64,000 nucleotides of DNA, taken from NCBI GenBank assembly GCA_036675565.1, contig JAKFER010000047.1:105756-169755 (forward strand). The letters run 5' to 3'. The number at the start of each line of letters is the position of its first letter. Positions within the stretch are counted from its first letter, which is position 1. Positions 18,216 to 43,454 of this stretch are shown here, piece by piece. The stretch is from Chitinophagaceae bacterium. Its GTDB lineage: Bacteria; Bacteroidota; Bacteroidia; Chitinophagales; Chitinophagaceae. Under the pieces are notes generated by a model. The model worked only from the letters and a program-made list of their open reading frames with translations, made no database searches and was not told the origin of the DNA. The position numbers were made by a program, and so were the translations under genes.

Positions 18216-19004
18216 TCAATTTGATGCTTTTACCTGCATAAATATCCATTCGAAAAGTTTTGGTTCTGAAAATGCAGGGTCCCAGCTGTTGTGATTGGCC
18301 TCCGGGTATAACGTAAATTTTACGTTTGCTTTTTCTTTTTTTAATGATTCAACCATTTTTTCAGAGTGGGATGGAGGTACAACATCGTCCTTTGCTCCAT
18401 GAAATATCCACCAGTTTACGTTTTTCATTTGTTTGGCCGTTTTTATATGGGCACCACCACAGATGGGAAAAGCTGCGGCAAACAAACCGGGATTACGATA
18501 AACCAGTTCAAAAGTGCCCATGCCACCCATGGATAAACCACCAACATACACTTGTTTTTTATTGACAGGATAGGTTTCCATTACATATCCTACAAGTTGG
18601 TTTAACAATTCCATGTAGCGGGTTGGTTGTTCATCTTTCACAAAATGAAAAACCCTGCTATTATCATCATGCAATCTCAATACATTACTCCAGTAACTGT
18701 TTGACCGGCATTGAGGAAAAATTACGATTGCAGGATATTTTTTCCTGATAGAATCTCTCAAAAATACTTTGGCTCCATGCACCAATTGCTTTTCATTATC
18801 GGTACCCCTTTCTCCTGCACCATGTAAAAAAAATACGACAGGGTATTTTTTTGATTGATCATAGTTTTCCGGCAATAATAAACGATAGGGTAACGTATCA
18901 CCTCCCTGTACCAGCCATTTTTTCTGGAAAAGTGAAAGATCTTGTGCAGCAACAATGACCGTTAGTGAAAGGAGAAATATTGAAGTGAATATTTTTTTTA
19001 GCAT
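18216..19004 (-). CDS. Alpha/beta-hydrolase esterase (phospholipase/carboxylesterase or prolyl-oligopeptidase-like)
   Basis: GLSMGG nucleophile elbow, a late H in NHNSWD, and a signal peptide from MLKKIFTSIFLL. The start at 19004 avoids overlapping the sulfatase stop. Confidence 0.7.
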   Translation of the reverse strand: MLKKIFTSIFLLSLTVIVAAQDLSLFQKKWLVQGGDTLPYRLLLPENYDQSKKYPVVFFLHGAGERGTDNEKQLVHGAKVFLRDSIRKKYPAIVIFPQCRSNSYWSNVLRLHDDNSRVFHFVKDEQPTRYMELLNQLVGYVMETYPVNKKQVYVGGLSMGGMGTFELVYRNPGLFAAAFPICGGAHIKTAKQMKNVNWWIFHGAKDDVVPPSHSEKMVESLKKEKANVKFTLYPEANHNSWDPAFSEPKLFEWIFMQVKASN

Positions 19005-19020
19005 GTCATCCATTTTTAAA

Positions 19021-20511
19021 TTAATAGCTTCCTTTGTAAAGATTATCAATCCGATTATTGATGGTTCTTTTTAATGGGATCTGTAAACCATTGGTTTCTT
19101 CAAGCCATTTAAATAAATCATTTTTTAATTCAATTCCTATTTGCCGGTAACTGGTATCGCGAATCAGGTTATTCATTTCAAAAGGATCATTTTGCAGATC
19201 AAACAATTCATTGATATCCCATACACCATTATAATAAATATACTTATACCTGTCTGATCGAACGGCAAAAGTGGTAGGCGTTTGCGGGAATGCAGATTCC
19301 CAATAATACTCATAAAAAACTTTATCTCTTTGCCATCCATTTGCATTTCCCTTTAACAGGTTTGAAAAAGAAAACCCCTGCATTTGTTTGGGTTTTGAAA
19401 TGCCAGCCAGTTCAAGAAAGGTTGGTGCTATATCAACATTCATCACTACTTTATCTACCACTGAATTGGGTTTTACCATCCCAGGTGCCCAGACAAGCAT
19501 TGGTACCCGCATGCTTTCTTCATAGGCATGGCGTTTATCAATCAAACCATGTTCGCCAAAAGAAAATCCATTATCGCCCATATAAACAACCATGGTGTTT
19601 TGTTCAAGACCTTCAGCCTTCACCCAATCCAATACTTTTTCAACACTTTCATCTACCGCCTGCAATGTTTCAAGATACAGGTGATAAAATTTGTCAAAGG
19701 GTATCTGGCCGTGATACATATAATCAACACCATGCCAGCTATACCGTTGCTTGCGAACCCAGGTGGGTATGTCGCTGTAATTTACTTTTGATTGCGGAGC
19801 GGTAGGTATACCGTAATATTTACTGCTATCCGTTGCCGTTAGATACATGCTGGGCGGTGTTACTATTGGTAAAGTTGCATACATTCCCTTATGTCTTTCT
19901 GCAGGTTCAAATTCAGCATGTACTCCTTTATGTGATAGATAAACAAAGAAGGGTTTATTCTTTTTCCTGTTATTCATCCATTCAATGGCATTCTTTGTCA
20001 GGAGGTCCGTAACATAACTGCCTTCAGCTTGCGGAACCACCTTTCCATTGATGTTGAAAACCGGGTTTAAATAAACACCCTGGCCGCGAAAACTTAACCA
20101 ATGATCAAATCCAGGTTGCGGCTGATCATCTGTATTGCCCATATGCCATTTACCAAAAAAAGCTGTTTGGTATCCTTTCTCCTGCATGTATTTTGGGAAA
20201 AAAATAAGATTGGTTGGCAGGGGGGCATCATTGTCAACCACTGTATGACTATGAGCATACTGGCCGGTTAAAATGGATGCACGACTAGGAGAACAAAGTG
20301 CTGTTGAAACAAATGCATTTTTAACATGTGCTCCTTCTTTGGCCATGCGGTCCATACCAGGTGTTTGTAATCCCTGTATTTTATTCATGAAACCCATGGC
20401 ATCATAACGGTGATCATCAGACAAAATAAAAATGATGTTCATTTGTTTTTGCTGTGCACACAACACACCGTTCAAGAACATGGCTATCGTTATAATTAAT
20501 AAATTTTTCAT
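19021..20511 (-). CDS. Cys-type sulfatase (S1 family)
   Basis: SDDHRYD metal site and the CSPSRASILTG formylglycine motif, plus a signal peptide from MKNLLIITIAMF (ATG at 20511). Confidence 0.85.
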   Translation of the reverse strand: MKNLLIITIAMFLNGVLCAQQKQMNIIFILSDDHRYDAMGFMNKIQGLQTPGMDRMAKEGAHVKNAFVSTALCSPSRASILTGQYAHSHTVVDNDAPLPTNLIFFPKYMQEKGYQTAFFGKWHMGNTDDQPQPGFDHWLSFRGQGVYLNPVFNINGKVVPQAEGSYVTDLLTKNAIEWMNNRKKNKPFFVYLSHKGVHAEFEPAERHKGMYATLPIVTPPSMYLTATDSSKYYGIPTAPQSKVNYSDIPTWVRKQRYSWHGVDYMYHGQIPFDKFYHLYLETLQAVDESVEKVLDWVKAEGLEQNTMVVYMGDNGFSFGEHGLIDKRHAYEESMRVPMLVWAPGMVKPNSVVDKVVMNVDIAPTFLELAGISKPKQMQGFSFSNLLKGNANGWQRDKVFYEYYWESAFPQTPTTFAVRSDRYKYIYYNGVWDINELFDLQNDPFEMNNLIRDTSYRQIGIELKNDLFKWLEETNGLQIPLKRTINNRIDNLYKGSY

Positions 20512-20568
20512 GTGCATGTATATAGCCTGGTGAATTGTCAATGCAATCTAAAAAATGATTCGTATTTA

Positions 20569-22545
20569 TTAATACTTATGCCTCACAAGCCTGATTAAAA
20601 AACCACCACCCGGCGCCATAATAATTTTTAGTTTTTTATTTTGCCTGATCGTTTGTTCTGTAATCGTATAATCGCTTCCGTATGAATGTGCATTTAATCC
20701 ATCACTACAGATGGTGGCAGCATAATTTTTATTTTCAATCATATCAAGTGTCAAAGTTATTTCTCTTGCAGTTTCATTATTCATGCCGGCAATAAACCAG
20801 TCGTTATCTTTTGTTCTTGCTGTGATAATATATTCTCCAATTTTTCCCTGCAGTATTTTTGTATCATCCCATATTGTTGGAATGGAGCCTAGTAAATCCA
20901 TAAAAGCAGGTTCTTTTATACCCTGGCTTGGATTACCGCTGAATATTTGCAGCGGACTATCATAAACAGCGAACATAGCCAATTGGTGACAACGTGTACC
21001 CATGCTCATGGGATTTTTTGCAATAGGTCTGAACTGGTCTTTTTGCGCATTCAACAATAATCCGGGTTCATAGTCTAATGGTCCTGAAAGCATACGGGTA
21101 TATGCAATGGCTACATTATGTTCAGGTGTGGCCAAATCACTCCAGATATTCCATTCTGCTCCTAACACACCTTCTTGTGTAACTGCATTGGGCCAGGTTC
21201 GGTTAAATCCTTTAGGTGGAAAAGCGCCATGAAACATTACAGTGATTTGATGATCTGCACATGCTTCTGCAATCCGGTGATAAAAATTAACCATCTTCTG
21301 ATCATCGCGATCCATAAAATCTGTCATAATGCTTTGCACACCCCATTTATTAAATTGTTTCAATGCGCTGTCCAATTGCCTGTCAAGCGTAGAACACAAT
21401 GTCCATAGCATGAGTCGTACATCATTCTTTTTTGCATAAGCGGCTAATGTGTCCATGTTAATATTTGGATTGATATCAAACAGGTCTTTATAATTGCTCC
21501 AGCCGGCATCAAGCATGATTTGATTAAATCCAAACTTCTTTGCAAAGTCTATATAAAATTTATAGGTGTCCGTATTGATCCCTGCAACAAAGGGCACATT
21601 GAATAAACTGATTCCATTGATCCATTCATCGGTTCCTTTGCCGGTTTTTATCCATGATGGATCTTTGATTTTTGAAGGGTCGCTTAATAAATAAACCAGG
21701 TCATTTTCCGGCAGATCAATATCATTTTTTGCAATCATTACTACCCGCCAGGGCAACATGCGTGTTCCTTTTATTTTGGCGATATAATTAGTTCTTTCTT
21801 CCACGATTAATTGTGGAAATTCGCCTTCTGTCATTTTTTCTTTTAAAGGATAAGGTGCAAATACCCCTGATAGCATCCCGTTGTTTTGTTTTAAAAACAT
21901 TCCCGGGTATTCATACAGGTTAGCATCCGTTATTCCAAGATGGTAACCATTTTTAAGGGACACCACAACAGGTGCATAGGTAATCAGTGTATCGGGTAAT
22001 GAGGAAAGGGCGATATTTTTATATTGGCCTTCGAAACTGGTATGAAAAATATCCCTGTCGATTTGTTTTTCAATATGTGCATACCAGATTTGCGGAGGTG
22101 CTTCAAAACTAAAATCAACTGTTTCATTTTTAACCAGGATAGAATCCCTGAACCCAGTTCCTATTCTATAGGCCATACCATTATTGAACAAACGAAATTC
22201 AATGCTGAATGGCTGTTTGAATGTTAGGGTCAGTTGATTAAAATGGTTATCTATAATCTTGCGCCTGTATGGAACAGGAACCGTTACTTTTTCTGATGTG
22301 TGACTGTATTTGTATTTTTTGACAGATAATTTATCAGTTAGTTTACGTCCATTATATAGTTCCAGGTCAATGCCGTTATTGGTTTGTAAAACATGTCCAT
22401 TTGCAGAGAGGATATAGGTCAGCTTTTCTTTTGCGTTAACCGATAATTTTAAAGTTGAATCGGGTGAATACAATATATAAGACTCCTGCGAAAAGCTACC
22501 GAAGTATATCAACAAACCAAAGCATGCAGCAAGCAAACTCTTCAT
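20569..22545 (-). CDS. Glycoside hydrolase family 97 (alpha-glucosidase/alpha-galactosidase family)
   Basis: SusB-like N-terminal beta-sandwich (SPDSTLKLSV...LTYIL), a central TIM barrel with MLDAGWS, and ~650 aa, typical of GH97. Confidence 0.75.
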   Translation of the reverse strand: MKSLLAACFGLLIYFGSFSQESYILYSPDSTLKLSVNAKEKLTYILSANGHVLQTNNGIDLELYNGRKLTDKLSVKKYKYSHTSEKVTVPVPYRRKIIDNHFNQLTLTFKQPFSIEFRLFNNGMAYRIGTGFRDSILVKNETVDFSFEAPPQIWYAHIEKQIDRDIFHTSFEGQYKNIALSSLPDTLITYAPVVVSLKNGYHLGITDANLYEYPGMFLKQNNGMLSGVFAPYPLKEKMTEGEFPQLIVEERTNYIAKIKGTRMLPWRVVMIAKNDIDLPENDLVYLLSDPSKIKDPSWIKTGKGTDEWINGISLFNVPFVAGINTDTYKFYIDFAKKFGFNQIMLDAGWSNYKDLFDINPNINMDTLAAYAKKNDVRLMLWTLCSTLDRQLDSALKQFNKWGVQSIMTDFMDRDDQKMVNFYHRIAEACADHQITVMFHGAFPPKGFNRTWPNAVTQEGVLGAEWNIWSDLATPEHNVAIAYTRMLSGPLDYEPGLLLNAQKDQFRPIAKNPMSMGTRCHQLAMFAVYDSPLQIFSGNPSQGIKEPAFMDLLGSIPTIWDDTKILQGKIGEYIITARTKDNDWFIAGMNNETAREITLTLDMIENKNYAATICSDGLNAHSYGSDYTITEQTIRQNKKLKIIMAPGGGFLIRLVRHKY

Positions 22546-22573
22546 GAAGCTGGTACTTTGAAAAAATTGTCTT

Positions 22574-24874
22574 CTATTTTACCCATTGGATCCTGGATTG
22601 TTTAACATCCTGTGAGTTGGTTCCGATCATGATCATAAATTCACCAGGCTCCCAATCATATATAAGATCGTAATTGTAAAATTTTAAATCTTCCGGGGTA
22701 ATATCAAAGCTTACCGTTTTTGTTTCACCTGCCTTCAATTCAATTTTTTGAAATCCTTTTAATTCTTTTACCGGCCTGGTTACGCTGCCAACAATGTCGC
22801 GGATGTATAATTGCACAACTTCTTTTCCATCCCTGTTTCCGCTATTGGTAACATCAACACTGGCTGTGAGGGTTTGATTGCCGGTTAGATTTGAGCTGCT
22901 TAGTTTCAATTCACCGTATGTGAATTTCGTATAACTCAATCCATAACCAAATGGATACAGCGGATCGTTTGAAACATCCAGGTAATTGCTGCGAAATTTT
23001 TGAAACCATTTGCCTTCAGGCAATGGACGGCCTGTGTTTTTATGTGCATAGTAAATGGGCACCTGTCCAACATTTTGCGGGAAAGTTGCTGTCAATTTAC
23101 CGGAAGGATTTACATCACCAAACAATACATCTGCAACCGCATAACCCGCTTCGCTTCCACCAAACCAAACATTTAAAATAGCGGGTACATTTTTTTGTTC
23201 CCAGCTTAGCGCTAATGGGCGACCAGTAAATAAAACCAGTACAACGGGTTTGCCTGTTTTTAAAAGTGCATCTAACAATCTTCGCTGTACTTCGGGCACT
23301 TCAATATTGGTACGGCTGCTGGCTTCACCACTCATCTCTGCTGCCTCACCACCTGCGAAAACAATAACATCAGACTGGTTTGCAATATTCAATGCTTCAT
23401 CCATTAATTCTTTTTCAGTGCGGTTATCCCTGTTTAATGTTTTTCCAAACATGGTGGAATGTTGTTCCAATACACTGTCTTCCGTAAGGTTTGAACCTTT
23501 GGCATATAATACTTTTGCATTGTTACCCAGCACTTCTTTCATACCGGTAATAACTGCGGTTGCTTTGGAAAAATTTGCGGCAACACTCCAGGTGCCCGGC
23601 ATATTTTCTTTGGCATCTGCCAATGGCCCGATGAGTGCAATGGTTCCGGATTTTTTTAATGGTAAAATATTTCCTTCATTCTTCAGCAACACAAAACTTT
23701 CTGCAGATATTTTCCTGGCTTCCTGCCTGTGTGCATTAGAAAAGACTTCATTTTTTGCACGTTCTTCACTTCCATAACGATACGGGTCTTCAAACAATCC
23801 TAATTTATATTTTGCTTCCAGGATGCGGCGGCAAGCAGTTTCAATTTGTTGCTGCGTAACTTTTCCTTCTGCTAAAGATTTTTTTAAAGTGGTTAATAAA
23901 CCTTCACCAACCATATCCATATCTACACCAGCATTCAATGCCATGGCCGAAGCAATTTGCAGATCGCCTACACCATGATCTATCATTTCATTGATGCCTG
24001 TATAATCCGTTACAACAAAGCCATCAAAGCCCCATTGGTTCCTTAATACTTCCGTCAGTAACCATTTATTACCTGTTGCGGGTATGCCATCCACTTCGTT
24101 AAAAGAAGCCATCACGCTGCCAACACCTGCATCTACTGCAGCCTTGTATGGTGGCATATAATCATTGAACATGCGCTGGCGGCTCATATCAACCGTATTA
24201 TAATCCCTGCCAGCTTCAGATGCACCATATAATGCGTAATGTTTTACGCATGCCATCAAAGTATTATTTTTTGAAAGATCATCCTGCTGGTAACCTCTAA
24301 CCATTGCTTTCGCAATTTGAGAACCGAGATACGGATCTTCTCCATTGCCTTCTGAAACCCTTCCCCAGCGTGGATCGCGGGAAATATCAACCATCGGAGA
24401 AAAAGTCCAGTTGATGCCATCGGCACTGGCTTCCTGTGCAGCTATCTGTGCACTGCGTTCAATCAGATTCATATCCCAGGTGCAACTTAAACCTAACGGT
24501 ATAGGAAATACGGTTTCGTAACCATGAATAACATCCATACCAAACAACAAAGGAATTTTTAAACGGCTTTGTTCAACAGCAACCTTTTGCACATCCCTGA
24601 TCTTGGCAATTGATTTGATATTAAATAAACCACCAACCTGGCCTGCTTTTATTTTTTCTGCAATGTTTGAACTGCTTGCCTGACCTGTTGTAATATCCCC
24701 GGCCCCAGGTAAATTCAATTGACCGATCTTTTCTTCCAACGTCATTTTCGCCATTAGATCCGTAATGAATTTATCCATGGGTGAAGAAGCAGCTGAAGTT
24801 TCTGTTTGCGTATTCTGGGGCGTACTGCATCCCAAGAAAATGACCGTTGCAATTGCCAGTAATATTCTTTGCAT
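22574..24874 (-). CDS. bglX: GH3 beta-glucosidase (BglX-like), lipoprotein
   Basis: GH3 N-domain (KHYALYG, GFDGFVVTDY nucleophile region), C-domain and a terminal FnIII-like domain. Lipobox LGCS. Confidence 0.9.
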   Translation of the reverse strand: MQRILLAIATVIFLGCSTPQNTQTETSAASSPMDKFITDLMAKMTLEEKIGQLNLPGAGDITTGQASSSNIAEKIKAGQVGGLFNIKSIAKIRDVQKVAVEQSRLKIPLLFGMDVIHGYETVFPIPLGLSCTWDMNLIERSAQIAAQEASADGINWTFSPMVDISRDPRWGRVSEGNGEDPYLGSQIAKAMVRGYQQDDLSKNNTLMACVKHYALYGASEAGRDYNTVDMSRQRMFNDYMPPYKAAVDAGVGSVMASFNEVDGIPATGNKWLLTEVLRNQWGFDGFVVTDYTGINEMIDHGVGDLQIASAMALNAGVDMDMVGEGLLTTLKKSLAEGKVTQQQIETACRRILEAKYKLGLFEDPYRYGSEERAKNEVFSNAHRQEARKISAESFVLLKNEGNILPLKKSGTIALIGPLADAKENMPGTWSVAANFSKATAVITGMKEVLGNNAKVLYAKGSNLTEDSVLEQHSTMFGKTLNRDNRTEKELMDEALNIANQSDVIVFAGGEAAEMSGEASSRTNIEVPEVQRRLLDALLKTGKPVVLVLFTGRPLALSWEQKNVPAILNVWFGGSEAGYAVADVLFGDVNPSGKLTATFPQNVGQVPIYYAHKNTGRPLPEGKWFQKFRSNYLDVSNDPLYPFGYGLSYTKFTYGELKLSSSNLTGNQTLTASVDVTNSGNRDGKEVVQLYIRDIVGSVTRPVKELKGFQKIELKAGETKTVSFDITPEDLKFYNYDLIYDWEPGEFMIMIGTNSQDVKQSRIQWVK

Positions 24875-24892
24875 GATAATTGATTTTCTATT

Positions 24893-25561
24893 TTAATTAT
24901 TTAAATAAGGCTCAAGAGCTTTTTTCCATATCGCGTATCCCTTAGCATTCATATGCAGGTTATCAGCCAGGAAAATATCTTTCATAGGTTTGCCATTTTC
25001 ATCCAGCATTTTTGAAAACACATCTACAAACACGATATTTTTTTGATGGCTTAATCTTTCTTTAATTAGTTTATTTGCTTTCTTCATGTCAGGCATTAAT
25101 GACAACCTGGAAATACTTGGTTTTATTGAAATGTACACAATAGGCACCAGTGGTAATTTATTTCGGATCAAATGAATCAATGTATCTATCCTGTTGGCTA
25201 CTTCATCAGGAGTTGCCGGTGGAGATGAAGCCAGGTCATTTTCGCCCACATAAATAACTATTTGTTTGGGGTTGTAAGGGAAAATGATGTCATCAGCATA
25301 ATGAATTACATGCGGTGTACTGGACCCGCCAAATCCCCTGTTAATAACCGTTATACCTGGGAAATCATTTTGTAAATCCTTCCACATCCTGATTGACGAA
25401 CTGCCTACAAATAAAACAGCATTTGATGCAGGCATCTGGCTACTATCAGCTTTTTTAAATTCGACGATCTCATTATAAAAAGGAGCATCCTGCGCCTGGG
25501 CAACAGGTGAAAGAATCAATAAAAGGTTAAAAATGCTTAAAACCAAAAAAACACGTTTCAT
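24893..25561 (-). CDS. SGNH/GDSL hydrolase (carbohydrate or acyl esterase)
   Basis: Block I FVGSSS, block III GEND and block V DNLH; signal peptide present. Confidence 0.75.
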   Translation of the reverse strand: MKRVFLVLSIFNLLLILSPVAQAQDAPFYNEIVEFKKADSSQMPASNAVLFVGSSSIRMWKDLQNDFPGITVINRGFGGSSTPHVIHYADDIIFPYNPKQIVIYVGENDLASSPPATPDEVANRIDTLIHLIRNKLPLVPIVYISIKPSISRLSLMPDMKKANKLIKERLSHQKNIVFVDVFSKMLDENGKPMKDIFLADNLHMNAKGYAIWKKALEPYLNN

Positions 25562-25612
25562 ATTTATTAAATTTTCAATTTACAGTACGACTTGTCAACT
25601 TAAGGTATCAAA

Positions 25613-26038
25613 TTATTTATAAATGGATTTGGATGAAAATAAGACATGATCCAGGCTGAACTTTCCACCACCATAAAAAAGGAAAATGATGGACAGTAAA
25701 ATAAAAAGAAATGGGTGCTGGTCTTCGTACCAAAACTTTCCATGACCAATAAAAAAAGTAATATAAATCATTACAAAAAGTAACAGCAGTGCGCCGATTC
25801 TTGTAAGAAAACCAATTGTCAGCATGATGCCGGCCAACAGTTCGATAATTTTTCCGATATAAACCATCAAAACAGGAGCAGGTAATTTTTGAAATACATC
25901 CCATCCAAAATAAACTTTCATTTTCTCATCATCAAAAACTTCGTAACCATGATAGATCATCAATAACCCAATGATGATTCTGACTATGGCCAGGACTCCT
26001 TCGATTTTGAATGGGGTGGATGAAAAAAATCTTTTCAT
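25613..26038 (-). CDS. DoxX family inner-membrane protein
   Basis: 141 aa with four hydrophobic segments; RIIIGLLMIYHG...GKFSLD is typical of DoxX. Confidence 0.75.
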   Translation of the reverse strand: MKRFFSSTPFKIEGVLAIVRIIIGLLMIYHGYEVFDDEKMKVYFGWDVFQKLPAPVLMVYIGKIIELLAGIMLTIGFLTRIGALLLLFVMIYITFFIGHGKFWYEDQHPFLFILLSIIFLFYGGGKFSLDHVLFSSKSIYK

Positions 26039-26059
26039 TGTTTTAAAGTTACATTGCTA

Positions 26060-27838: not shown

Positions 27839-27962
27839 TATTTATTATTTGGATATTCTAAATCTATATTTCGAGCTTCACATAAATAGCCAGTTGGTCA
27901 GTTGCACAATTTAAAACTTATGTTCCTTTAGAAAAAAATAAACAACTGTTTATGGTAAACAT

Positions 27963-29123: not shown

Positions 29124-29177
29124 AAATACAAAATTTATTGATAAATACCTGTTGATCCTGGTGGAAGTTTGATTATC

Positions 29178-30542: not shown

Positions 30543-30589
30543 GGCGTATGATTTTTTCTAGATGTATAAGCAATCAGGTTTTTATGTCA

Positions 30590-35650: not shown

Positions 35651-35726
35651 ATATAAAAGGCGGAGATACTAAGTAAACAATCTTATCTGGTTAAATAAAA
35701 AATAAAAAGTGTTGACTATGGAAGAT

Positions 35727-35763
35727 AAAAAAATGGGTTGCAAAATTCAGTTGCAACCCATTT
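35727..35763 (-). terminator. Rho-independent terminator between the LamG lipoprotein gene and the VCBS gene of PUL2
   Basis: 13-bp perfect stem, 35731-35743 pairing with 35751-35763 (AAATGGGTTGCAA/TTGCAACCCATTT), 7-nt loop, followed by a T-run on the minus strand. Confidence 0.7.
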
Positions 35764-35780
35764 ATCCTATTCAAAGAAAT

Positions 35781-36632
35781 TTATAATTTATTAGTGTGCA
35801 AGTTGGCTACTTCAGCAGGTGTCAAAGCTTTAGTAAAAATGCGAAACTGATCCAATGCACCATTAAAAGATTTTGCCCATCCCTCAGCACCATGATTTGC
35901 AAGCGTAGGTGAAACCTGGAAAGCAAATGAACCAAGAACAAGACCAGTAACATTTTCCCAAACCAATGGTCCATAATTACCACCACCCAATACTTTTTTA
36001 TTTACGGTGGTTGGTTGACCATCTGCGTATACCGTTAATTCGGAAGTGGCAGCGCTATAGGTTATAGCAATATGCGTCCATTTATTAAGTGCACCGGGTA
36101 TTTTAACTTCTGTCCATTCTTCTCCATTACCACTGGCTACACCTGCATTATACATGTGAACCTTTATAAAAGCTTCAGCACCATTATCAAGATTTTCCAG
36201 GAACACTTCAAAATTTCCCCAAAATTCTGTGCTTTTTGAAATGGCAAACAATCCCTGTGCGCCACCTGTAACAGGTCCCACACCATTCATCCAAAAAGCA
36301 ATCGAGAAACTACCTGGCGATTTTAATGCATCTGGAACTGTTCTAACTACCATATATCCACCCGCTCCTACCTGAGCAGCTTCTCCTTCTGTAACACCGG
36401 GCACAAATGAAATACTTGTTGCTGAAGTAGATAATCTTAATTCACCAGTATCCCTGGTGTCCCCATTAAAATGCCAATAGCTTTTGCTGTCTAATAGAGT
36501 CAACGGCGGTGGAGGTGGATCCAGGATAAGCTCCCCTAAGGCTGGTCTGTCCAGTTTTTGACATGCTGTTAAAAGCAAACCAAACATAATAACCAGGGAG
36601 CATCCAAACAATATTATTTTAGTTGATTTCAT
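35781..36632 (-). CDS. LamG/concanavalin-A-like lectin-fold lipoprotein (SusE/F position)
   Basis: Lipobox LTAC; FSIAFWMNG and ALDQFRIFTKALTPAEV are typical of Laminin_G_3-type domains. It lies directly downstream of SusD. Confidence 0.65.
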   Translation of the reverse strand: MKSTKIILFGCSLVIMFGLLLTACQKLDRPALGELILDPPPPPLTLLDSKSYWHFNGDTRDTGELRLSTSATSISFVPGVTEGEAAQVGAGGYMVVRTVPDALKSPGSFSIAFWMNGVGPVTGGAQGLFAISKSTEFWGNFEVFLENLDNGAEAFIKVHMYNAGVASGNGEEWTEVKIPGALNKWTHIAITYSAATSELTVYADGQPTTVNKKVLGGGNYGPLVWENVTGLVLGSFAFQVSPTLANHGAEGWAKSFNGALDQFRIFTKALTPAEVANLHTNKL

Positions 36633-36657
36633 ATTTTTCAGTTTTGAAATTTAAATT

Positions 36658-38160
36658 TTAATAATTCGGGTTTTGTATTAAAATACCACCTGATTTATCA
36701 ATTTCTTCTTGAGGGATGGGTAGCAATCGATGTTTGAGTTGGTAACCCGGGCTACCCGAAGCCGGTAATACAGTGATATCAATACCCCATCTTACTAAAT
36801 CCCAAAATCTGGATTCCTCCATAGCCATTTCAACAAAACGTTCATGCCGGATGGCTTGTCTTAATGCATCCTGGTCTGTTGTTGTAACTGGTGGAAGGAT
36901 GGTATTGTTGTTTCCCCTGGCTCTTGCTCTTACCATTTCAAGCCATGCTAATGCTTCGGTCGTATTTTGCGTGCCTCCCAACTCATTAGCCGCTTCGGCA
37001 GCCATTAGTAATACATCGGCATAGCGCAATATTCTATGATTCATCCACCTGCCGAACCGGCTGTTTAAAGCTACCCTGTCTGCAGGATTTGTATATATTT
37101 TTTTGTTCCAATAAGGCCTTGCAATCGTTGGCTGTGGAGGAACTGTTTCACCAAACAGTGGATCTGTTTGACCAGAGTATAATATGGTTGCATCCTTACG
37201 AGGATCTCCGGTTTCATATTCATCTACGAGTTTTTGAGTAGGCACATTCCAGCCCCAACCCAGATCCCATGCTCCTGCACCTCTTACTCCCTGCACGTTG
37301 GCGTAAGGAATACCAAGATCTAATGCTGGTCTGAAAATCGCCTGTATCTCGAAAATAGATTCAGGACCATTTTCACCTGTATGCCTGAATTGACTGCCAT
37401 AATTGGAAACCAAACCATACTTGTTTAATGCTATTACGCTTTTTGCGGAAGTTAGTGCTGCAGCCCAGTTATTCCGCCATAAATGCGTTTGAGCCTGCAG
37501 TGTTAACGCAGCTCCTTTTGTCAATCGACCGGTATATTGCGCATCCCAATCCTGGGGTAATACAGAAGTAGCTTCCATTAAATCCTGGTCAATCAATGTA
37601 AAGATCTCGTTTGATGTAGATTTTGGAATATTTACCTGCGCTGCATCAGTCACTTTAAAATCTACTAAAGGAACTTCACCAAAAGAACGGACCAGGTTAA
37701 AAAAAGCATAGGCACGTAAAAATTTGGCTTCAGCTTTATTGATCAAAGTGTTTTGATCTGTAGCTCCAATGGAATCTATGTCATCAATAATAGCATTGGC
37801 AGCAATGATTACTGCATAATGATTGGTCCAGTATGTCTGTATCAAACCATTACTTTTATCATACTGAAAATCATCAAACATCTGCCCATGATTGGCGCCA
37901 TCTGCCTGTGTACTTCCTTTTTCAGATTCATCTGATCGGAAGCTGTGGACAGCTAAATAATGAATGGAGTTAAACCCATCCGTTCTCAATAAGGAATAAA
38001 GTGCAAAAACTTTACTATCAAATGATCCTGCCGGAACATCTTCATCAATATATCGACCTAATGGCTGGCGGTCCAGGAAATCCTTTTTACAGGATGAAAT
38101 TCCGATCAGCAAGACCACCATTGGTAATAAGCTCCATTTTAAATAATATATTTTTTTCAT
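36658..38160 (-). CDS. SusD/RagB family lipoprotein
   Basis: Lipobox ISSC; LRAYAFFNLVRSFG and RHERFVEMAMEESRFWDLVRWG signature regions. Confidence 0.9.
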   Translation of the reverse strand: MKKIYYLKWSLLPMVVLLIGISSCKKDFLDRQPLGRYIDEDVPAGSFDSKVFALYSLLRTDGFNSIHYLAVHSFRSDESEKGSTQADGANHGQMFDDFQYDKSNGLIQTYWTNHYAVIIAANAIIDDIDSIGATDQNTLINKAEAKFLRAYAFFNLVRSFGEVPLVDFKVTDAAQVNIPKSTSNEIFTLIDQDLMEATSVLPQDWDAQYTGRLTKGAALTLQAQTHLWRNNWAAALTSAKSVIALNKYGLVSNYGSQFRHTGENGPESIFEIQAIFRPALDLGIPYANVQGVRGAGAWDLGWGWNVPTQKLVDEYETGDPRKDATILYSGQTDPLFGETVPPQPTIARPYWNKKIYTNPADRVALNSRFGRWMNHRILRYADVLLMAAEAANELGGTQNTTEALAWLEMVRARARGNNNTILPPVTTTDQDALRQAIRHERFVEMAMEESRFWDLVRWGIDITVLPASGSPGYQLKHRLLPIPQEEIDKSGGILIQNPNY

Positions 38161-38170
38161 ACTAAGAAAT

Positions 38171-41100
38171 TTAAAAATTTAAATTAAGGCCTGCTGAATA
38201 AACTGCGGGTACAGGATAGGTTCCATTATCTATTCCAAATGCGGTTGCACTACCACCAATTTCCGGTGTATAACCAGTATTGTTGGCAAATGTTGCAAGG
38301 TTTTGAGCATTTAAATAAATACGCAATGATTTTATTCCAACACTACTTAACATGTTTTGTCCAAATGTGTACCCTAACTGTAAATTCCGGATTCTGAAGA
38401 AACTGCCATCTTCAATATTATAAGTTGAATTTTGGTAGTTATTGGCTCTTCTTGTACTTAAAATAGGTTCCCAGTTAGATGAACCAGGACCATTCCATCG
38501 GTCAATCCGCTGTTCCAGGTAATTAAAATCAGCAAATGTACCCTGTGTCCATGCCCTGAAAATCTCATTTCCATAAACGCCTTGCATATCAACACCGATA
38601 TCAAAACCTTTATAGTTGAAGGAGATACTACCACCATAAATAAAATCTGGTGTAGGGTTTCCTATTAATGTTCTGTCATCAACTGTAATTTCACCATCAC
38701 CATTGATGTCTCTGTATTTTATATCACCCGCAGAAACGGCACCGATTTGACTGGTAGGACTTTTGGTTACTTCTGTATTTGATTGATAAATTCCATCATG
38801 TACATAACCGTAGAAATAACCTATCGGAAAACCAGCAGTTGTTCTTGCAGCACCGTTGATAATGGCAAAACCTGTTTTGTTAAGCCTGGTTACATTATTT
38901 TTTATCGTGGTAAGGTTTCCGGAAATTGAATATCCAAAATCTTCATTTATATCCTCGTTCCAGCTAGCTGTAAATTCAAAACCTTTGTTTTCAATTTCTC
39001 CCAGGTTTCCTAATCCGGGCAATGTTCCGGAAGGACCTTCAATTAAAGTAAGTACATCCTTGGTTACTTTATTATAATAATTGGCCTCAAAGAATAGCCT
39101 GTTGTTGAAAGTATTCAGCTCAAATCCAAATTCATAGCTATGAACTGTTTCCCAGTTTAAGTTTGGATCTGGAATATACTGGGGTTCTAAAGCGGCAACT
39201 ACATTATTTCCAAAAACACCAGAATTTGCATTAGTCAACGTAGGATAAGCAGGGTACCTGTAACGGTCATCAATATTCTTATTTCCTAAAATACCCCATG
39301 AGCCTTTTAGTTTCAGGTAGTCCAGGAATTCCTGGTCTCCAAAAAAATCTTCCTTGCTGATAACCCAACCAACTCCAATTGCTCCAAAATTTTTCCATTG
39401 GTTGCCTAGAGAATAAAACTGGCTGCTTCCATCTCTTCTAAAAGAAGCATTCAATAAATATTTGCCCTCATAATTATATAATGCTCTTGCTAAATAAGAA
39501 AGCGATGCATCTTCCCAGGCACTTCCTGATCCAAGTTTTGTAGATGGATCTCCAACTGCATCCACATACCATTTATCTGGATTGTTTGGAATTATCTGGG
39601 AAGTTCCTTGTTGAACAGAAGAATTTGTTCCTTCAAATGCCCTGTAGTATGTAGTAACACCACCCAACACAGTCAGATCATGCCCGCCAAATTTCTTTTT
39701 GTAGGTAAGCAAATAATCCATCTGTGTTTTAGGATATATATCCTGGCTTTGATTAACAGATGTGGTTCTGCGTGTTGTATCTCTTTTGTCAGCCCCAACA
39801 ATTTCAGGGTTAAAAACTGATAAAATTGGCGCATAGCTCCTGGAAGTGTTGAAGCCATAATCGGCGAATAACTGAACGCGGAAATTAAAGTTTCTCAAAA
39901 AATTTACATCGCCATAAATGCTACCCACAGCCCGGTATTCCCTGGCAATTAATGTATTTTTTTCTGATTCAACATTTACCAAAGGATTAAAAACCTGGGC
40001 TCTTTGAAATGAAGGTAGTGTATGGTATAACCCGGTCGTTGGGTCTAAAACCGGTGCAATAGGTGCGGCCCTGATGGCAGATCCCACACTTCTTTCCTGT
40101 GGCATTTCGGCCCGGTATGCATTCATTGTGATGCCGAATTTTAATCCCCTTGTCACCCTTAATTCATCACTAAAATTGAGCGTATATTTTTTGTATTGTT
40201 CATGTTTGATGATTCCTTCTTCATTTATATAACCCAAGCCCAGGTAGAAACGATTTTTTTCTGTGGCCCCTGTTATACTGATATTGTTATAATTAATTAT
40301 TGCATCCTGGAAAATTTCATCCTGCCAATCTGTATTAGCATTCCACAACGTATAATCAAAAGCATTTGCTCCCTGGTTAATGAGCTGTTCGGTATATAAT
40401 TCTTTAAACTGCGCTGCATTTGTCATTTGAATTTTATCCTGGACTTTTTTAACACCAATGGAGGTATTGAAATTCACCAGCATTTGACCCGCTTTTGCCT
40501 TTTTGGTAGTAATTGCAATAGCACCATTGGCACCACGTACTCCAAAAATCGCTAATGAAGAAGGATCTTTCAAAACTTCAATAGATTCAATATCAGCCGG
40601 ATTTAAAAAGTTGATGTTGTCATTCAGGATACCATCTACTATATAAACCGGTTTCACACCATTAATGGTATTTGTACCCCGAATACGAATATCTGGTTCT
40701 GCACCCGGGCGTCCTGAATTTACAACAGACAGACCTGCTACTTTACCTTGCAATAAACCTAATGGATTTGCTGATGGCTTATTGGCAATTTCTTCACCTT
40801 TGATGGTAACGATAGAACCAGTAAGATCTCTTTTAGCAGCAGTACCATATCCAATTACAACCACAGCGTCCATCGCTAAAGAAGAAGGAAGCAGCGTAAT
40901 ATCAAGTGATGTCCTTCCTGCCAGGGCAACTTCCTGTGTTTCGTAACCCACATAAGAAAATACAAGGGTTACATTTGTATTTTCCACATCAATCGAAAAT
41001 TTTCCTTCCGCATTGGTTGTAGTCCCGGTGGTTGTTCCTTTAACCTGAACGGATACTCCACTGAGTGGCATGGCGCCATCCCCCAGTACCGTACCGGTAA

Positions 41101-41485
41101 TTAATTCAAATATTTTTTTATTTGCTACTTCCCCTTCCCTGATCACCACCAGGTTGTTCTGCATTACAGTATATGTGAGTGATTTATTTTTAAAAAGGAG
41201 GTTTAAAACATCCATAACTTCTGCATTTATTACAGAAATGGCTGTTTTTTCTTTTATGCCTTTAATGTTTTCGTTATACAGAAAACGAAAATCAGTTTGT
41301 CCTTCAATATCGGCTAAAACCTTATTTATTGAAGTGCTTTTGTAGTTCAGGTTTACTTTGCTTTGTCCAAAGCCTGTTGCTGAAACATTTAAAACAAGCA
41401 ACAATATAAATATCCCTGTCAGGTTTACAATGCGTAAAGCCCTTGACATGGATGCTGCAGGATTTTTCATTAAAAAAAATTTCAT
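38171..41485 (-). CDS. SusC/RagA TonB-dependent transporter with an STN signalling extension
   Basis: STN-like region (INKVLADIEGQTDFRFLY), CarbopepD_reg-like domain (ITGTVLGD..GVSVQVKGT), barrel, and C-terminal GLNLNF. Likely start is the ATG at 41485 (or 41470). Confidence 0.9.
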   Translation of the reverse strand: MKFFLMKNPAASMSRALRIVNLTGIFILLLVLNVSATGFGQSKVNLNYKSTSINKVLADIEGQTDFRFLYNENIKGIKEKTAISVINAEVMDVLNLLFKNKSLTYTVMQNNLVVIREGEVANKKIFELITGTVLGDGAMPLSGVSVQVKGTTTGTTTNAEGKFSIDVENTNVTLVFSYVGYETQEVALAGRTSLDITLLPSSLAMDAVVVIGYGTAAKRDLTGSIVTIKGEEIANKPSANPLGLLQGKVAGLSVVNSGRPGAEPDIRIRGTNTINGVKPVYIVDGILNDNINFLNPADIESIEVLKDPSSLAIFGVRGANGAIAITTKKAKAGQMLVNFNTSIGVKKVQDKIQMTNAAQFKELYTEQLINQGANAFDYTLWNANTDWQDEIFQDAIINYNNISITGATEKNRFYLGLGYINEEGIIKHEQYKKYTLNFSDELRVTRGLKFGITMNAYRAEMPQERSVGSAIRAAPIAPVLDPTTGLYHTLPSFQRAQVFNPLVNVESEKNTLIAREYRAVGSIYGDVNFLRNFNFRVQLFADYGFNTSRSYAPILSVFNPEIVGADKRDTTRRTTSVNQSQDIYPKTQMDYLLTYKKKFGGHDLTVLGGVTTYYRAFEGTNSSVQQGTSQIIPNNPDKWYVDAVGDPSTKLGSGSAWEDASLSYLARALYNYEGKYLLNASFRRDGSSQFYSLGNQWKNFGAIGVGWVISKEDFFGDQEFLDYLKLKGSWGILGNKNIDDRYRYPAYPTLTNANSGVFGNNVVAALEPQYIPDPNLNWETVHSYEFGFELNTFNNRLFFEANYYNKVTKDVLTLIEGPSGTLPGLGNLGEIENKGFEFTASWNEDINEDFGYSISGNLTTIKNNVTRLNKTGFAIINGAARTTAGFPIGYFYGYVHDGIYQSNTEVTKSPTSQIGAVSAGDIKYRDINGDGEITVDDRTLIGNPTPDFIYGGSISFNYKGFDIGVDMQGVYGNEIFRAWTQGTFADFNYLEQRIDRWNGPGSSNWEPILSTRRANNYQNSTYNIEDGSFFRIRNLQLGYTFGQNMLSSVGIKSLRIYLNAQNLATFANNTGYTPEIGGSATAFGIDNGTYPVPAVYSAGLNLNF

Positions 41486-41639
41486 ATGTTTATTTTTATT
41501 GCTTTTAATTGTCATATGCAATTTGCCATGAGGGATTGTGATTGATATTCCTCTTATATTATTGCTCATTTCATATGAATTAATTGAGTTGATTAACCAA
41601 AAAATAGCGGTTTAATTAAGATTTTATCCATATTCTGTT

Positions 41640-42725
41640 TTATGGGGCACTGATAAAAACTTCATTTGATTCATTTATTTGAAATTTAAAAGGTTCCGCA
41701 ATTTGAAGAGCAGTTAGTGCCTGGTTGATTGTTTCATTTTCAAATGAACCATTGAAACTGAGCGATTTTACGTGGTCGTCAGTAAAAATAATTTTTACAT
41801 CAAACCATCTTTCCATTTTCCTGGCTAGTTGATCAAATTTATCTCCGCGAAAAATTAAGCGATTATAAATCCAGGCTGTTTCTGAAAGGTCAGTGTTTTT
41901 AAGGGCAGAATCGATTGTAGAAATAAAATAACTCTTTTCGAAGACAGTCAATGTATTATTAGTGCTGCCTGAAACTTGATTTTTCTCAGAATAAATTTGC
42001 TTGGCAACCATAATTTTTTGATTGGGTTTTATCCGGATAGGCACCCGGTCTCCCAATCTTTTTAATTCTACTTCTCCTTGCAATAAAGTGGTTTCCACAA
42101 CTTCGTCTCCCGGGTATGATCTCACTGTGAAACGGGTACCTAAAACATTGATGTCAATGTTGTCAGCATGTACTATGAAGGGCCTTTGCTCATCACGGAT
42201 TATATCAAAATATCCTTCACCTGTTAATGTCACTTCTCTTAGTGTATCGGAAAACTGGTTATAGGTAAGTAAAGAACCTGCATTTAAAAATACAACAGAT
42301 CCATCCGGTAGTTGTGATTTAATGCGACTTCCATTGGGCGCCTCAATTACCTTAGCCGAATTAATGCGAATTGGTTGAAAAGATTTAAATACGGTTAAGA
42401 GAAAAAAACCAACACCTGCAATGCACGCAACTGCAAACCAGGTAATAATTTTTCTTTTTTTTATGTTGCGAACCCTTTGTTCAAATAATGCAAGGTCTTT
42501 ATCTTCATTTGAAATAGATAACCCGCTGATTATTTCATTTTCTTTCTCAAATAAGTTTATAAATTGGGGTGATGATGTTTGCCAAAGGCTCAGCATAACA
42601 TCATATTGTTGTTGTAGCGCAGGATTTTGGGATAATAAATTATTGAATGTGGCGACTTCCAATTCAGTTGCTTCACCGCTTATATTGCGGGCCATTAAAT
42701 GCCATATTTTATTTTGATCAGTCAA
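41640..42725 (-). CDS. FecR-family anti-sigma factor
   Basis: N-terminal ARNISGEATELE motif, one TM segment and a FecR/DUF4974 architecture. The track start at 42725 is a TTG; an alternative ATG lies at 42695. Confidence 0.85.
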   Translation of the reverse strand: MTDQNKIWHLMARNISGEATELEVATFNNLLSQNPALQQQYDVMLSLWQTSSPQFINLFEKENEIISGLSISNEDKDLALFEQRVRNIKKRKIITWFAVACIAGVGFFLLTVFKSFQPIRINSAKVIEAPNGSRIKSQLPDGSVVFLNAGSLLTYNQFSDTLREVTLTGEGYFDIIRDEQRPFIVHADNIDINVLGTRFTVRSYPGDEVVETTLLQGEVELKRLGDRVPIRIKPNQKIMVAKQIYSEKNQVSGSTNNTLTVFEKSYFISTIDSALKNTDLSETAWIYNRLIFRGDKFDQLARKMERWFDVKIIFTDDHVKSLSFNGSFENETINQALTALQIAEPFKFQINESNEVFISAP

Positions 42726-42866
42726 GGTTGGTCATGGTCTGTCTTAAAGGGACAGTTTTTTAAAGCATATCTACTAAAGAAAAAAAATATTTTTTTACGT
42801 AGGTTTTTGAAATGCCAGGAAGAACTAATTCAATAGCTGGGAATGCAGGTTATTGCAACGATCTAT

Positions 42867-43454
42867 TTACAAGGATTTCCGGGTGAGCTGAAAACGAAAA
42901 CTTTTTTGTTTTTCAACTTGTAATGATTGGCAAATTCTTTTAACGGCGATGGCCATTTGAACATCGATCGTATTTACAGAAATGTTCAATATCTGTGATA
43001 CCTCTTTGTACTTTAAACCATCTTCTCTAACTAGTTTAAAGATCATTTTGCAACGTGCCGGTAGATCGTTGACAGCTTTATGCATTCGTTGCAGCATCTC
43101 ATTGGTGATCATCTGGTCGTGTGGATTTTCAACTTTATTGTCAATTTCAAAATCCAGGAAATCGTAAGGAGCGGTTACCAGTGCTTTGGCCTTGCGGGAA
43201 AGTTCGTTTAAAGAGCGGTTTTTAACCGAAACATATAAATAAACGGGAAGGTTTTCAATTTTTGATATGCTATCCCGGTTATTCCATAAGGACACAAAAA
43301 TATCTTCAACAATTTCTTCGGCTATTTCACGGTTATGTATAATAGTATATGAAAAACGGCAAAGTTTATATTGAAACAAGCTATAAAGTTTGGCAAAAGC
43401 CTTTTGATCGCCTATTGCAATATTAGATTGTATAGCTTGAGTGCAATCGTTCAT
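42867..43454 (-). CDS. ECF-type RNA polymerase sigma-70 factor
   Basis: Region 2 (EEIVEDIFVSLW) and region 4 HTH (LKYKEVSQILNISVNTIDVQ). It is divergent from paaA. Confidence 0.85.
   Translation of the reverse strand: MNDCTQAIQSNIAIGDQKAFAKLYSLFQYKLCRFSYTIIHNREIAEEIVEDIFVSLWNNRDSISKIENLPVYLYVSVKNRSLNELSRKAKALVTAPYDFLDFEIDNKVENPHDQMITNEMLQRMHKAVNDLPARCKMIFKLVREDGLKYKEVSQILNISVNTIDVQMAIAVKRICQSLQVEKQKSFRFQLTRKSL

Follow-up and report, generated by a model that had tools for sequence, protein, structure and literature searches.

Which polysaccharide would be degraded by a locus in which two GH144-like genes and a GH3 gene lie beside genes for a sulfatase, two esterases, a GH43-like enzyme and a GH97 enzyme? 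A first-pass annotation of the 64,000-nt window of Chitinophagaceae DNA that we analysed had read this locus as a beta-1,2-glucan locus with an unexpected set of accessory enzymes. Beta-1,2-glucan is a polymer produced by other bacteria. Sixteen co-directional open reading frames on the minus strand span positions 43454 to 18216, with an intergenic spacing of -29 to 141 nt. Their coordinates were all confirmed, and Pfam profile matches, from which our domain calls were made, bore out the annotated gene list and order as well as every domain call. In minus-strand order, the features are as follows.

42867-43454, minus strand: ECF-type sigma factor (Sigma70_r2, r4_2, Sigma70_ECF)
41640-42725, minus strand: FecR-type anti-sigma factor (FecR, FecR_C)
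38171-41569, minus strand: N-terminally extended SusC-like TonB-dependent transporter (CarbopepD_reg_2, Plug)
36658-38160, minus strand: SusD-like lipoprotein (SusD_RagB, SusD-like_3; lipoprotein signal ...GISSC)
35781-36632, minus strand: LamG/ConA-like lipoprotein (Laminin_G_3)
35731-35763, minus strand: terminator-like hairpin separating the SusCD/LamG genes from the enzyme genes (13-bp stem, 7-nt loop, T-run)
32330-35650, minus strand: FG-GAP/VCBS beta-propeller and UnbV_ASPIC lipoprotein, 1106 aa (FG-GAP_3 x10, UnbV_ASPIC)
30590-32269, minus strand: GH144b, lipoprotein combining a Pro-rich linker and an Ig-like Big_5 domain with a catalytic domain (Big_5; PF10091, E 5e-72)
29178-30542, minus strand: GH144a, CpSGL ortholog, predicted endo-beta-1,2-glucanase (PF10091, E 2e-80)
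27963-29123, minus strand: exported Gfo/Idh/MocA oxidoreductase with an SRQEFL leader (GFO_IDH_MocA N and C domains)
26060-27838, minus strand: GH43-fold enzyme with an F5/8 type C (CBM32-like) domain and a C-terminal beta-sandwich (Pfam GH43, 67.8 bits; F5_F8_type_C)
25613-26038, minus strand: DoxX membrane protein (DoxX)
24893-25561, minus strand: SGNH/GDSL esterase (Lipase_GDSL_2; motifs GSSS and DNLH)
22574-24874, minus strand: lipoprotein, BT_3567/JMB19063-type GH3 beta-glucosidase (three GH3 domains)
20569-22545, minus strand: GH97 enzyme, retaining alpha-galactosidase clade (N-terminal, catalytic and C-terminal GH97 domains)
19021-20541, minus strand: Cys-type (formylglycine) S1 sulfatase (Sulfatase, SGSH_C)
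18216-19049, minus strand: alpha/beta-hydrolase esterase, PHB-depolymerase/CE1-like (Abhydrolase_2, Esterase)

The assignment to GH144 had originally been made from family features and not from a search, and the PF10091 matches place both genes at 29178-32269 in that family and not in another. The founder of GH144 is CpSGL (Cpin_6279; PDB 5GZH/5GZK), the endo-beta-1,2-glucanase of Chitinophaga pinensis, which is reportedly highly specific for beta-1,2-glucan. GH144a (454 aa) is 69% identical to CpSGL over 429 aa (5gzh, E 7e-221), while GH144b, in which the annotated Ig-like N-domain was recovered as Big_5, shares 55% identity with it and gives PDB matches to 4gl3 (E 2e-160) and CpSGL (8e-148). 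The seven key residues D135, D139, E142, E211, F268, Y330 and D400, which have catalytic or clan-defining roles (PMC12102758), are all common to CpSGL, GH144a and GH144b. The two genes are the only GH144 genes of the 4.98-Mb genome. The GH3 protein, earlier assumed to finish the degradation of sophoro-oligosaccharides, matches JMB19063 from compost (3u48, 1304 bits) and BT_3567 from Bacteroides thetaiotaomicron (5xxl, 1184 bits) over its full length, has the same three-domain layout and an intact nucleophile motif (GFVVTDY); resemblance to these sophorose-degrading enzymes fits the proposed role, and activity on sophoro-oligosaccharides is predicted here. We consider it probable that the locus is a PUL under ECF sigma/anti-sigma control for substituted bacterial beta-1,2-glucans, both cyclic glucans and osmoregulated periplasmic glucans.

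The transporter had been described as an STN-SusC; its SusC identity was confirmed, but the STN match (residues 95-144) is weak (21 bits; cut-off 28.4). The transporter shares 78-79% identity with the SusC proteins of two related loci (L050 and L074). Lipoprotein-type signals, with a Cys after the h-region, are present in the SusD, LamG, FG-GAP/UnbV, GH3 and both GH144 proteins. The LamG/ConA-like lipoprotein, probably a surface glycan-binding protein, is encoded 3' of SusD in 50 of 80 related loci (49 with one type, 14 with the window's type and 13 with both), and an ortholog of the FG-GAP/UnbV protein occupies the same position in nine of the 80, with 55-66% identity. The terminator proposed after the LamG gene was found there as the hairpin at 35763-35731 of the minus strand.

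We examined the recurrence of the accessory genes in the 80 related loci, which are mostly from Chitinophagaceae, and, with a neighbourhood cut-off of 15 kb from a GH144 gene, in a phylum sample of 401 genomes. The recurrent order is sigma, FecR, SusC, SusD, LamG, (GH144b), GH144a, GH43-like, SGNH, GH3, (sulfatase), esterase. GH3 is present in 38 of the 80 loci, the alpha/beta esterase in 33 (often immediately 3' of a GH144 gene), the GH43-like enzyme in 25, the SGNH gene in 21 (directly upstream of GH3 in most of them), the sulfatase in 13-14 (13 clear orthologs and one 36% match) and an FGE gene in 6-7 sister loci; an FGE ortholog is also encoded in the genome studied here. Within the phylum sample, GH144 occurs in 133 genomes (33%), in exactly two copies in 88 of them, and in 64 of the 69 genomes with a GH43-like homolog. 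The GH43-like homologs lie within the cut-off in 36 of 69 cases and the sulfatase orthologs in 10 of 27, the latter, at 53-76% identity, adjoining GH144 across several of the phylum's families. The sulfatase, GH43-like, SGNH and esterase genes are conserved partners of GH144, and their presence cannot be called unexpected, as it first had been.

A composite locus, in which a beta-1,2-glucan core (SusCD, both GH144 genes and GH3) by chance adjoins GH97, sulfatase, esterase and Gfo/DoxX genes serving other substrates, would account for the variable gene content 3' of GH144a among related loci and for the rarity of GH97 (1 of 80 loci) and of Gfo/Idh/MocA orthologs (5 of 80, with DoxX recurring alongside). 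We regard it as very improbable, since synteny with GH144 is kept across many genera and classes by the genes for the sulfatase, both esterases and the GH43-like enzyme, neighbouring genes overlap or are only 18-54 nt apart, and the enzyme block contains no strong terminator.

GH97 is the sole enzyme of the decorated set that is peculiar to this lineage. Together with the sulfatase and the GH43-like enzyme, it had been named as misfitting a plain beta-1,2-glucan, in its case as an enzyme of alpha-linkages; it is indeed an odd member, and its clade is that of the alpha-galactosidases. Membership in the alpha-glucosidase clade was rejected, as the match to BT1871 (3a24, E 3.5e-140) far exceeds that to SusB (5e-36); against NF053844 the protein scores 647 bits, under the 800-bit cut-off. 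The GH43-like enzyme had no match in a sequence search of the PDB. Its AF2 model (pLDDT 70) matches GH43 folds (top 5msx, E 4e-19), and D56, D153 and E222 are invariant across 21 homologs; it is an uncharacterised subfamily tied to GH144. We know of no role on glucans for GH43 or GH97 enzymes. The top PDB match of the Gfo/Idh/MocA protein is the glycoside 3-oxidising DgpA (3e-21). Its leader, annotated as a TAT signal, is TAT-like and conserved in orthologs (as SRQQFL) but not canonical, because SRQEFL contains a single Arg.

Catalytic motifs are intact in both esterases, the sulfatase, the GH43-like enzyme and GH3. The alpha/beta esterase carries a GLSMG motif and matches TIGR01840 weakly; the TTG start places its first 29 nt inside the sulfatase gene, and translation probably begins instead at an internal Met (MLKKIF...). 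The suggestion that the two esterases act on substituents of cyclic glucans receives indirect support from the related loci, where a GDPD (glycerophosphodiesterase) gene in 13 of 80 and a metallophosphoesterase gene in 14 of 80 adjoin a GH144 gene, which fits phosphoglycerol-substituted glucans; these phosphodiesterases are absent from the present locus. The sulfatase has a CSPSR motif at residue 83 and, with 7p24, 5g2v and 7lha as top PDB matches (E 1e-72 to 1e-78), appears nearest to hexose-6-O-sulfatases. With the S1_11-type enzymes (BT4656, 5G2V; 7P24; 7LHA) it shares the motif and the Sulfatase and SGSH_C architecture; the relationship is a moderate one by PDB match, not a SulfAtlas subfamily assignment, and its setting is a glucan PUL rather than a mucin, GAG or porphyran one. 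We know of no natural sulfated beta-1,2-glucan, and a literature search for one found none.

The sulfatase and GH43-like enzyme had been taken to indicate a complex or undescribed glycan, a reasonable suggestion that agrees with the remark of Lapebie et al. that PULs with GH144 plus a sulfatase may target an unknown sulfated glycan (PMC6499787). The substrate might accordingly be an undescribed heteroglycan with beta-1,2-glucosyl stretches, for instance an exopolysaccharide, or an algal or fungal glycan, that is sulfated and decorated with galactose or pentose; in its breakdown GH144 would be just one among several activities that cleave backbone or side chains. Deep conservation of the sulfatase (with FGE in sister loci) and of the GH43-like/CBM32 enzyme as GH144 partners, and the alpha-galactosidase clade of GH97, speak for it, as does a Bacteroides xylanisolvens PUL (Bxy_22780/Bxy_22790) in which the GH35 enzyme adjoining GH144 is a beta-1,2-galactosidase inactive on sophoro-oligosaccharides (PMC11739564). 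Both PULs carry a glycosidase beyond glucan cleavage, GH35 there and the GH43-like and GH97 enzymes here, which hints at a decorated substrate. Yet CpSGL, to which GH144a is 69% identical, is reported to be highly specific, many related loci have nothing beyond SusCD, GH144 and either an esterase or a GDPD, as would suit simple substituted glucans, and known cyclic glucans need no more than GH3, two GH144 enzymes and esterases. We consider the heteroglycan unlikely and retain substituted bacterial beta-1,2-glucans as the preferred substrate, although four points weigh against them: no natural sulfated form is known, GH43 and GH97 enzymes have no recognised part in glucan breakdown, the phosphodiesterases of sister loci are missing here, and CpSGL lies outside any PUL.

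Homology and synteny suggest how such glucans could be used. Oligosaccharide transit, relayed via the N-terminal extension of SusC, would cause FecR to free the sigma factor and the operon to be transcribed, and the hairpin 3' of the LamG gene would hold SusCD/LamG transcripts above those of the enzymes. SusD and the LamG lipoprotein, perhaps joined by the FG-GAP/UnbV protein, would bind the glucan at the surface, where GH144b, proposed to be a surface endo-beta-1,2-glucanase with an Ig-like spacer domain and a Pro-rich tether, would open and fragment it. Periplasmic GH144a would reduce the fragments to sophoro-oligosaccharides, and the GH3 enzyme would convert these to glucose in the periplasm. 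The SGNH and alpha/beta esterases would strip O-acyl groups (succinyl, acetyl or methylmalonyl), the formylglycine sulfatase would take off an anionic ester, with 6-O-sulfate the likeliest candidate, and the GH43-like/CBM32 and alpha-galactosidase-like GH97 enzymes would cleave glycosyl decorations. Sugar oxidation is a possible role for the exported Gfo/Idh/MocA protein together with DoxX.

The gene for CpSGL itself stands alone, with no SusC/D, GH3, sulfatase or esterase gene within 15 kb on either side in C. pinensis, whereas GH144a lies in a 16-gene PUL beside a longer paralog; the founder enzyme, being outside any PUL, therefore sets no precedent for such accessory genes. The literature describes GH144 PULs as abundant and includes a version with a sulfatase (PMC6499787, PMC8072126): Lapebie et al. 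(2019) predicted a GH144 and sulfatase PUL type whose sulfatase they tied to marine organisms (PMC6499787), and a Maribacter/Zobellia cluster comprises two GH144 genes, GH3, susCD and a sulfatase (PMC8072126). The present locus shares this core of SusCD, two GH144 genes, GH3 and a sulfatase, has FG-GAP/UnbV, Gfo/Idh/MocA and DoxX, GH43-like and GH97 genes in addition, and extends the sulfatase association from marine organisms to a Chitinophagaceae-type genome and to soil and freshwater MAGs. PULs that unite GH144 with a sulfatase are on record in silico only, their biochemistry being absent from the literature, and the regular pairing of the extra enzymes with GH144 across the phylum points to a decorated natural glucan, so far undescribed.

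Sixteen open reading frames lie on the minus strand of the window, from 43454 down to 18216, separated by spacers of −29 to 141 nt. The genes for the SusC-like transporter and SusD are 10 nt apart and are followed by 12 genes on the same strand, the adjacent-pair arrangement by which a polysaccharide utilisation locus (PUL) is recognised. The gene-by-gene calls of the first-pass annotation, made from the sequence alone, were all borne out by Pfam; the features are listed from the upstream end.

upstream end of the locus, minus strand: ECF sigma factor, clear Pfam match
upstream end of the locus, minus strand: FecR, clear Pfam match
upstream end of the locus, minus strand: SusC-like transporter, CarbopepD_reg_2 and Plug domains with an N-terminal extension (Pfam)
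upstream end of the locus, minus strand: SusD (Pfam)
minus strand: LamG lipoprotein, Laminin_G_3 domain (Pfam)
35763-35731, minus strand: 13-bp hairpin followed by a T-run
32330-35650, minus strand: FG-GAP/UnbV protein, 1106 aa, ten FG-GAP_3 repeats and UnbV_ASPIC (Pfam)
30590-32269, minus strand: GH144b, 559 aa, PF10091 (GH144) with an N-terminal Big_5 Ig-like domain
29178-30542, minus strand: GH144a, 454 aa, PF10091 (GH144)
minus strand: exported Gfo/Idh/MocA oxidoreductase (Pfam)
minus strand: GH43-like protein, GH43 (67.8 bits) and F5/8 type C domains (Pfam)
minus strand: DoxX (Pfam)
minus strand: SGNH esterase, GSSS and DNLH motifs
minus strand: GH3, three GH3 domains (Pfam)
minus strand: GH97, three domains (Pfam)
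19021-20541, minus strand: sulfatase, Sulfatase and SGSH_C domains, PF00884 at 3e-56
18216-19049, minus strand: alpha/beta-hydrolase esterase, GLSMG motif

The hairpin separates the LamG gene from the enzyme block. The SusC-like transporter, with its N-terminal extension, gave a weak STN match (21 bits versus a Pfam cut-off of 28.4), and lipoprotein-type signals were found on SusD, the LamG protein, the FG-GAP/UnbV protein, GH144a, GH144b and GH3. Six more paralogs of the FG-GAP/UnbV protein, about 39% identical, are encoded elsewhere in the genome, two of them in tandem on contig C36 and three on C144. A promoter scan using the sigma-70 consensus, which is inapplicable to Bacteroidota, returned sites no commoner than in shuffled sequence.

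The GH144 assignment, which had been made from family features and not by a search, holds: both proteins match PF10091 (E = 2e-80 and 4.7e-72), confirming the family. GH144a matches CpSGL (Cpin_6279, PDB 5gzh), the endo-beta-1,2-glucanase of Chitinophaga pinensis on which GH144 was founded, at E = 7e-221, with 69% identity across 429 aligned residues, while GH144b matches 4gl3 at 2e-160 and CpSGL at 8e-148, being 55% identical to the latter. According to Nakajima et al. 2025 (PMC12102758), CpSGL has E211 as its general acid and most plausibly E142 as its base; D135 and D139 are sensitive to mutation, and the clan is defined by F268 and Y330. Alignment places the equivalent residues at D148, D152, E155, E224, F281 and Y343 in GH144a and at D259, D263, E266, E336, F389 and Y451 in GH144b; D400 of CpSGL is also kept in both paralogs. 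From these matches we assign both proteins to the GH144 endo-beta-1,2-glucanase family. The whole 4.98-Mb genome contains no further GH144 gene.

Such a pair is common. In an even sample of 401 genomes from across the Bacteroidota, 133 (33%) encode GH144 (E ≤ 1e-40); they represent 85 of 179 genera, and exactly two copies are present in 88 of these 133, usually a few kb apart, one of about 450-480 aa and the other longer. Orthologs of the sulfatase (≥ 53% identity) were found in 27 other genomes, 10 of which carry them within 15 kb of a GH144 gene; these ten span several families and classes, and chance would account for about 1%. A homolog of the GH43-like protein (E ≤ 1e-60) is encoded in 69 other genomes, 64 of which have GH144 as well, versus 33% of the whole sample. 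The two genes lie within 15 kb on one contig in 36 of the 69, the rest being mostly on separate contigs of fragmented assemblies. Six of the sampled genomes (G146, G183, G315, G395, G471 and G483) contain open reading frames, about 2900 aa long and weakly matching PF10091, that resemble cyclic beta-1,2-glucan synthases; if that is what they are, the glucan may also be a product of some Bacteroidota. No such synthase-like frame was found in the window's own genome.

GH144 PULs have been listed among abundant PUL types (Lapebie et al. 2019, PMC6499787), and susCD with GH3, two GH144 genes and a sulfatase was described as conserved in Maribacter and Zobellia in a Maribacter genome paper (PMC8072126). 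The GH35 enzyme of a Bacteroides xylanisolvens GH144 PUL acts as a beta-1,2-galactosidase and does not attack sophoro-oligosaccharides (PMC11739564). Our literature search found no paper characterising such a GH144 PUL or its sulfatase, GH43-like enzyme or esterases, and the present locus is a further member of a kind of PUL known from genome surveys only. An accessory set might have been expected around CpSGL itself. This was ruled out, as the C. pinensis gene is an orphan with no homolog of SusC/D, GH3, sulfatase or esterase within ±15 kb (G037:C1:7899000-7932999), and the founder enzyme therefore gave no hint of accessory genes. Unlike C. pinensis, Chitinophaga japonensis carries its CpSGL ortholog in a sigma-FecR-SusCD-GH144-sulfatase locus.

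To place the accessory genes, we mapped all 16 proteins onto 80 loci with close relatives of GH144a (66-78% identity), mostly from Chitinophagaceae isolates and MAGs, and counted matches within ±10 kb; with many of the contigs being short, these counts are lower bounds. A recurring order emerged of sigma factor, FecR, SusC, SusD, LamG, (FG-GAP/UnbV), (GH144b), GH144a, GH43-like, SGNH, GH3, (sulfatase) and esterase. GH3 is present in at least 38 of the 80 loci, the esterase in at least 33, the GH43-like gene in at least 25, SGNH in at least 21 and the sulfatase in at least 13-14 (13 clear orthologs and one 36% match), followed by FG-GAP/UnbV (at least 9), Gfo/Idh/MocA and DoxX (at least 5 each) and GH97 (at least 1). 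The first-pass annotation had proposed a beta-1,2-glucan locus with an unexpected enzyme set. Its interpretation is supported with a single correction, namely that the accessory set recurs in related loci and is usual for PULs of this family. That the locus is merely a composite of unrelated functions appears very improbable to us, except for GH97, with its one related locus.

Sister loci also carry genes that are missing from the window. A metallophosphoesterase lipoprotein of about 330 aa immediately follows GH144a in 14 of the 80 loci (for instance L001:11444-12424 and L039:9739-10728, and 12 others), and a glycerophosphodiester phosphodiesterase (GDPD) gene adjoins GH144a or the esterase in 13 (for instance L010:14732-15559). 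The window's genome encodes only a 34%-identical homolog of the former, on contig C214, and a 57%-identical, unlinked copy of the latter, on C289. The metallophosphoesterase and the sulfatase occur together in 10 of the 13 sulfatase loci, the GDPD loci being mostly a separate set; the idea that the sulfatase substitutes for the phosphodiesterases of sister loci was rejected on the ground of this co-occurrence. A DUF2961 protein, of the family that we take to be now called GH172, was found in 2 of the 80 loci, both Flavisolibacter GH144 PULs, between metallophosphoesterase and sulfatase (L008:12532-13998 and L013). Cyclic glucans and osmoregulated periplasmic glucans (OPGs) are known to carry phosphoglycerol, succinyl, methylmalonyl and acetyl groups at O-6, and phosphodiesterases and esterases adjoining a beta-1,2-glucanase agree with these substituents. 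That the substrate is an undescribed heteroglycan with stretches of beta-1,2-linked glucose, and not a classical periplasmic glucan, seems to us unlikely.

The sulfatase carries the motif CSPSR at residue 83, which follows the formylglycine pattern C-x-P-x-R, and probably starts at MKNLL. Its best solved relatives (7p24, 5g2v and 7lha; E = 1e-72 to 1e-78), which we take to represent the 6-O-sulfatase subfamily S1_11, are GlcNAc-6- and L-Gal-6-sulfatases, that is, hexose-6-O-sulfatases. A formylglycine-generating enzyme (FGE) gene adjoins the sulfatase in 6-7 of the 80 loci, and lies between sulfatase and esterase in several (L039:15393-16313, L012:14022-15041 and L008:15735-16670). The window's genome gave seven FGE-domain matches. 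One of them, on contig C154, shares 61% identity with the FGE encoded within sister PULs; for the FGE-domain gene at about 49287-50057, which lies in the window itself, the figure is just 27%. Motif and available maturase together identify the protein, at the level of sequence, as an S1 formylglycine sulfatase.

The GH43-like protein gave nothing useful against the PDB by sequence (no match better than 2e-4), and only a fold search placed it. Its AlphaFold model (21 homologs, pLDDT 70) matches GH43 structures with E = 4e-19 to 1e-10, the best being BT_3662 (5msx, 4e-19), and as modelled the protein has the GH43 five-bladed beta-propeller. D56 (in ADP), D153 (WDP) and E222 (IEG) are invariant among the 21 homologs and, judging from these motifs, would be the GH43 base, modulator and acid, respectively. 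The family is very large and unusually conserved, with thousands of members and more than 80% identity across genera, and is annotated in databases only as 'family 43 glycosylhydrolase' or 'beta-xylosidase'. The gene is interrupted in two relatives, by an in-frame TAG in G146 (G146:C1:41840-43627) and by a split into two matches in G166 (G166:C1:4746874-4748709).

The GH3 protein matches the compost beta-glucosidase JMB19063 with 1304 bits and BT_3567 (5xxl), the Bacteroides thetaiotaomicron GH3 enzyme that degrades sophoro-oligosaccharides, with 1184 bits. With the nucleophile motif GFVVTDY at residue 289, it is predicted to be a BT_3567-type beta-glucosidase. GH97 matches the retaining alpha-galactosidase BT1871 (3a24) at E = 3.5e-140 and SusB at 5e-36. 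It shares the DFMDRDDQ block unchanged with BT1871, with an inferred offset in residue numbering, and its score against NF053844 (647 bits) is under the 800-bit NCBIfam equivalog cut-off; by sequence it probably belongs with BT1871 and not with the SusB-type alpha-glucosidases. A role for GH97 on the one alpha-1,6 linkage found in cyclic glucans of the Xanthomonas type is unsupported, given its probable alpha-galactosidase clade and its being missing from 79 of the 80 related loci. The nearest solved relative of the Gfo/Idh/MocA protein is the glycoside 3-oxidising enzyme DgpA (3e-21). Its leader, called TAT in the first-pass annotation, reads SRQEFL (SRQQFL in orthologs) and, having a single Arg, is TAT-like and conserved but not canonical. 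The alpha/beta-hydrolase esterase frame has a TTG start that overlaps the sulfatase gene by 29 nt; an internal Met (MLKKIFTSIFLL...) opens the signal peptide, so that translation probably starts some 48 nt further downstream.

We consider it likely that the locus as a whole is a PUL for substituted beta-1,2-glucans. Signals would cross the envelope from SusC through FecR to the sigma factor. Capture of the glucan at the cell surface would fall to SusD and the LamG protein, possibly with the FG-GAP/UnbV protein, and the long tethered GH144b would make the first cut. After import of the fragments, GH144a and GH3 would yield glucose in the periplasm, with the two esterases stripping acyl groups, the sulfatase removing an anionic ester, and the GH43-like enzyme and GH97 taking off glycosyl decorations. 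One possibility for the Gfo/Idh/MocA protein and DoxX is glycoside 3-oxidation with electron transfer to the membrane.

More tentatively, the sulfatase, accompanied in sister loci by its FGE and a metallophosphoesterase, and the GH43-like/CBM32 protein could be dedicated de-decoration enzymes for an undescribed, widespread, sulfated beta-1,2-glucan with glycosyl side groups, made by soil, freshwater and marine bacteria. If so, the sulfatase would be either a glucan (Glc-6-O) sulfatase, the first of its kind, or a formylglycine-dependent phosphodiesterase acting on phosphoglycerol groups, and the activity of the GH43-like subfamily would be new to GH43. In Proteobacteria, beta-1,2-glucans act in symbiosis, virulence and osmoprotection, and to our knowledge their recycling in soil and water has barely been studied. 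The locus is a compact, complete example from which every accessory enzyme can be cloned and tested. The steady company that GH144 keeps with a formylglycine sulfatase, phosphodiesterases, two types of esterase and a GH43-like enzyme suggests that the natural substrate is decorated in chemically unrecorded ways, and the GH144 enzymes could serve as probes for this missing glycan.
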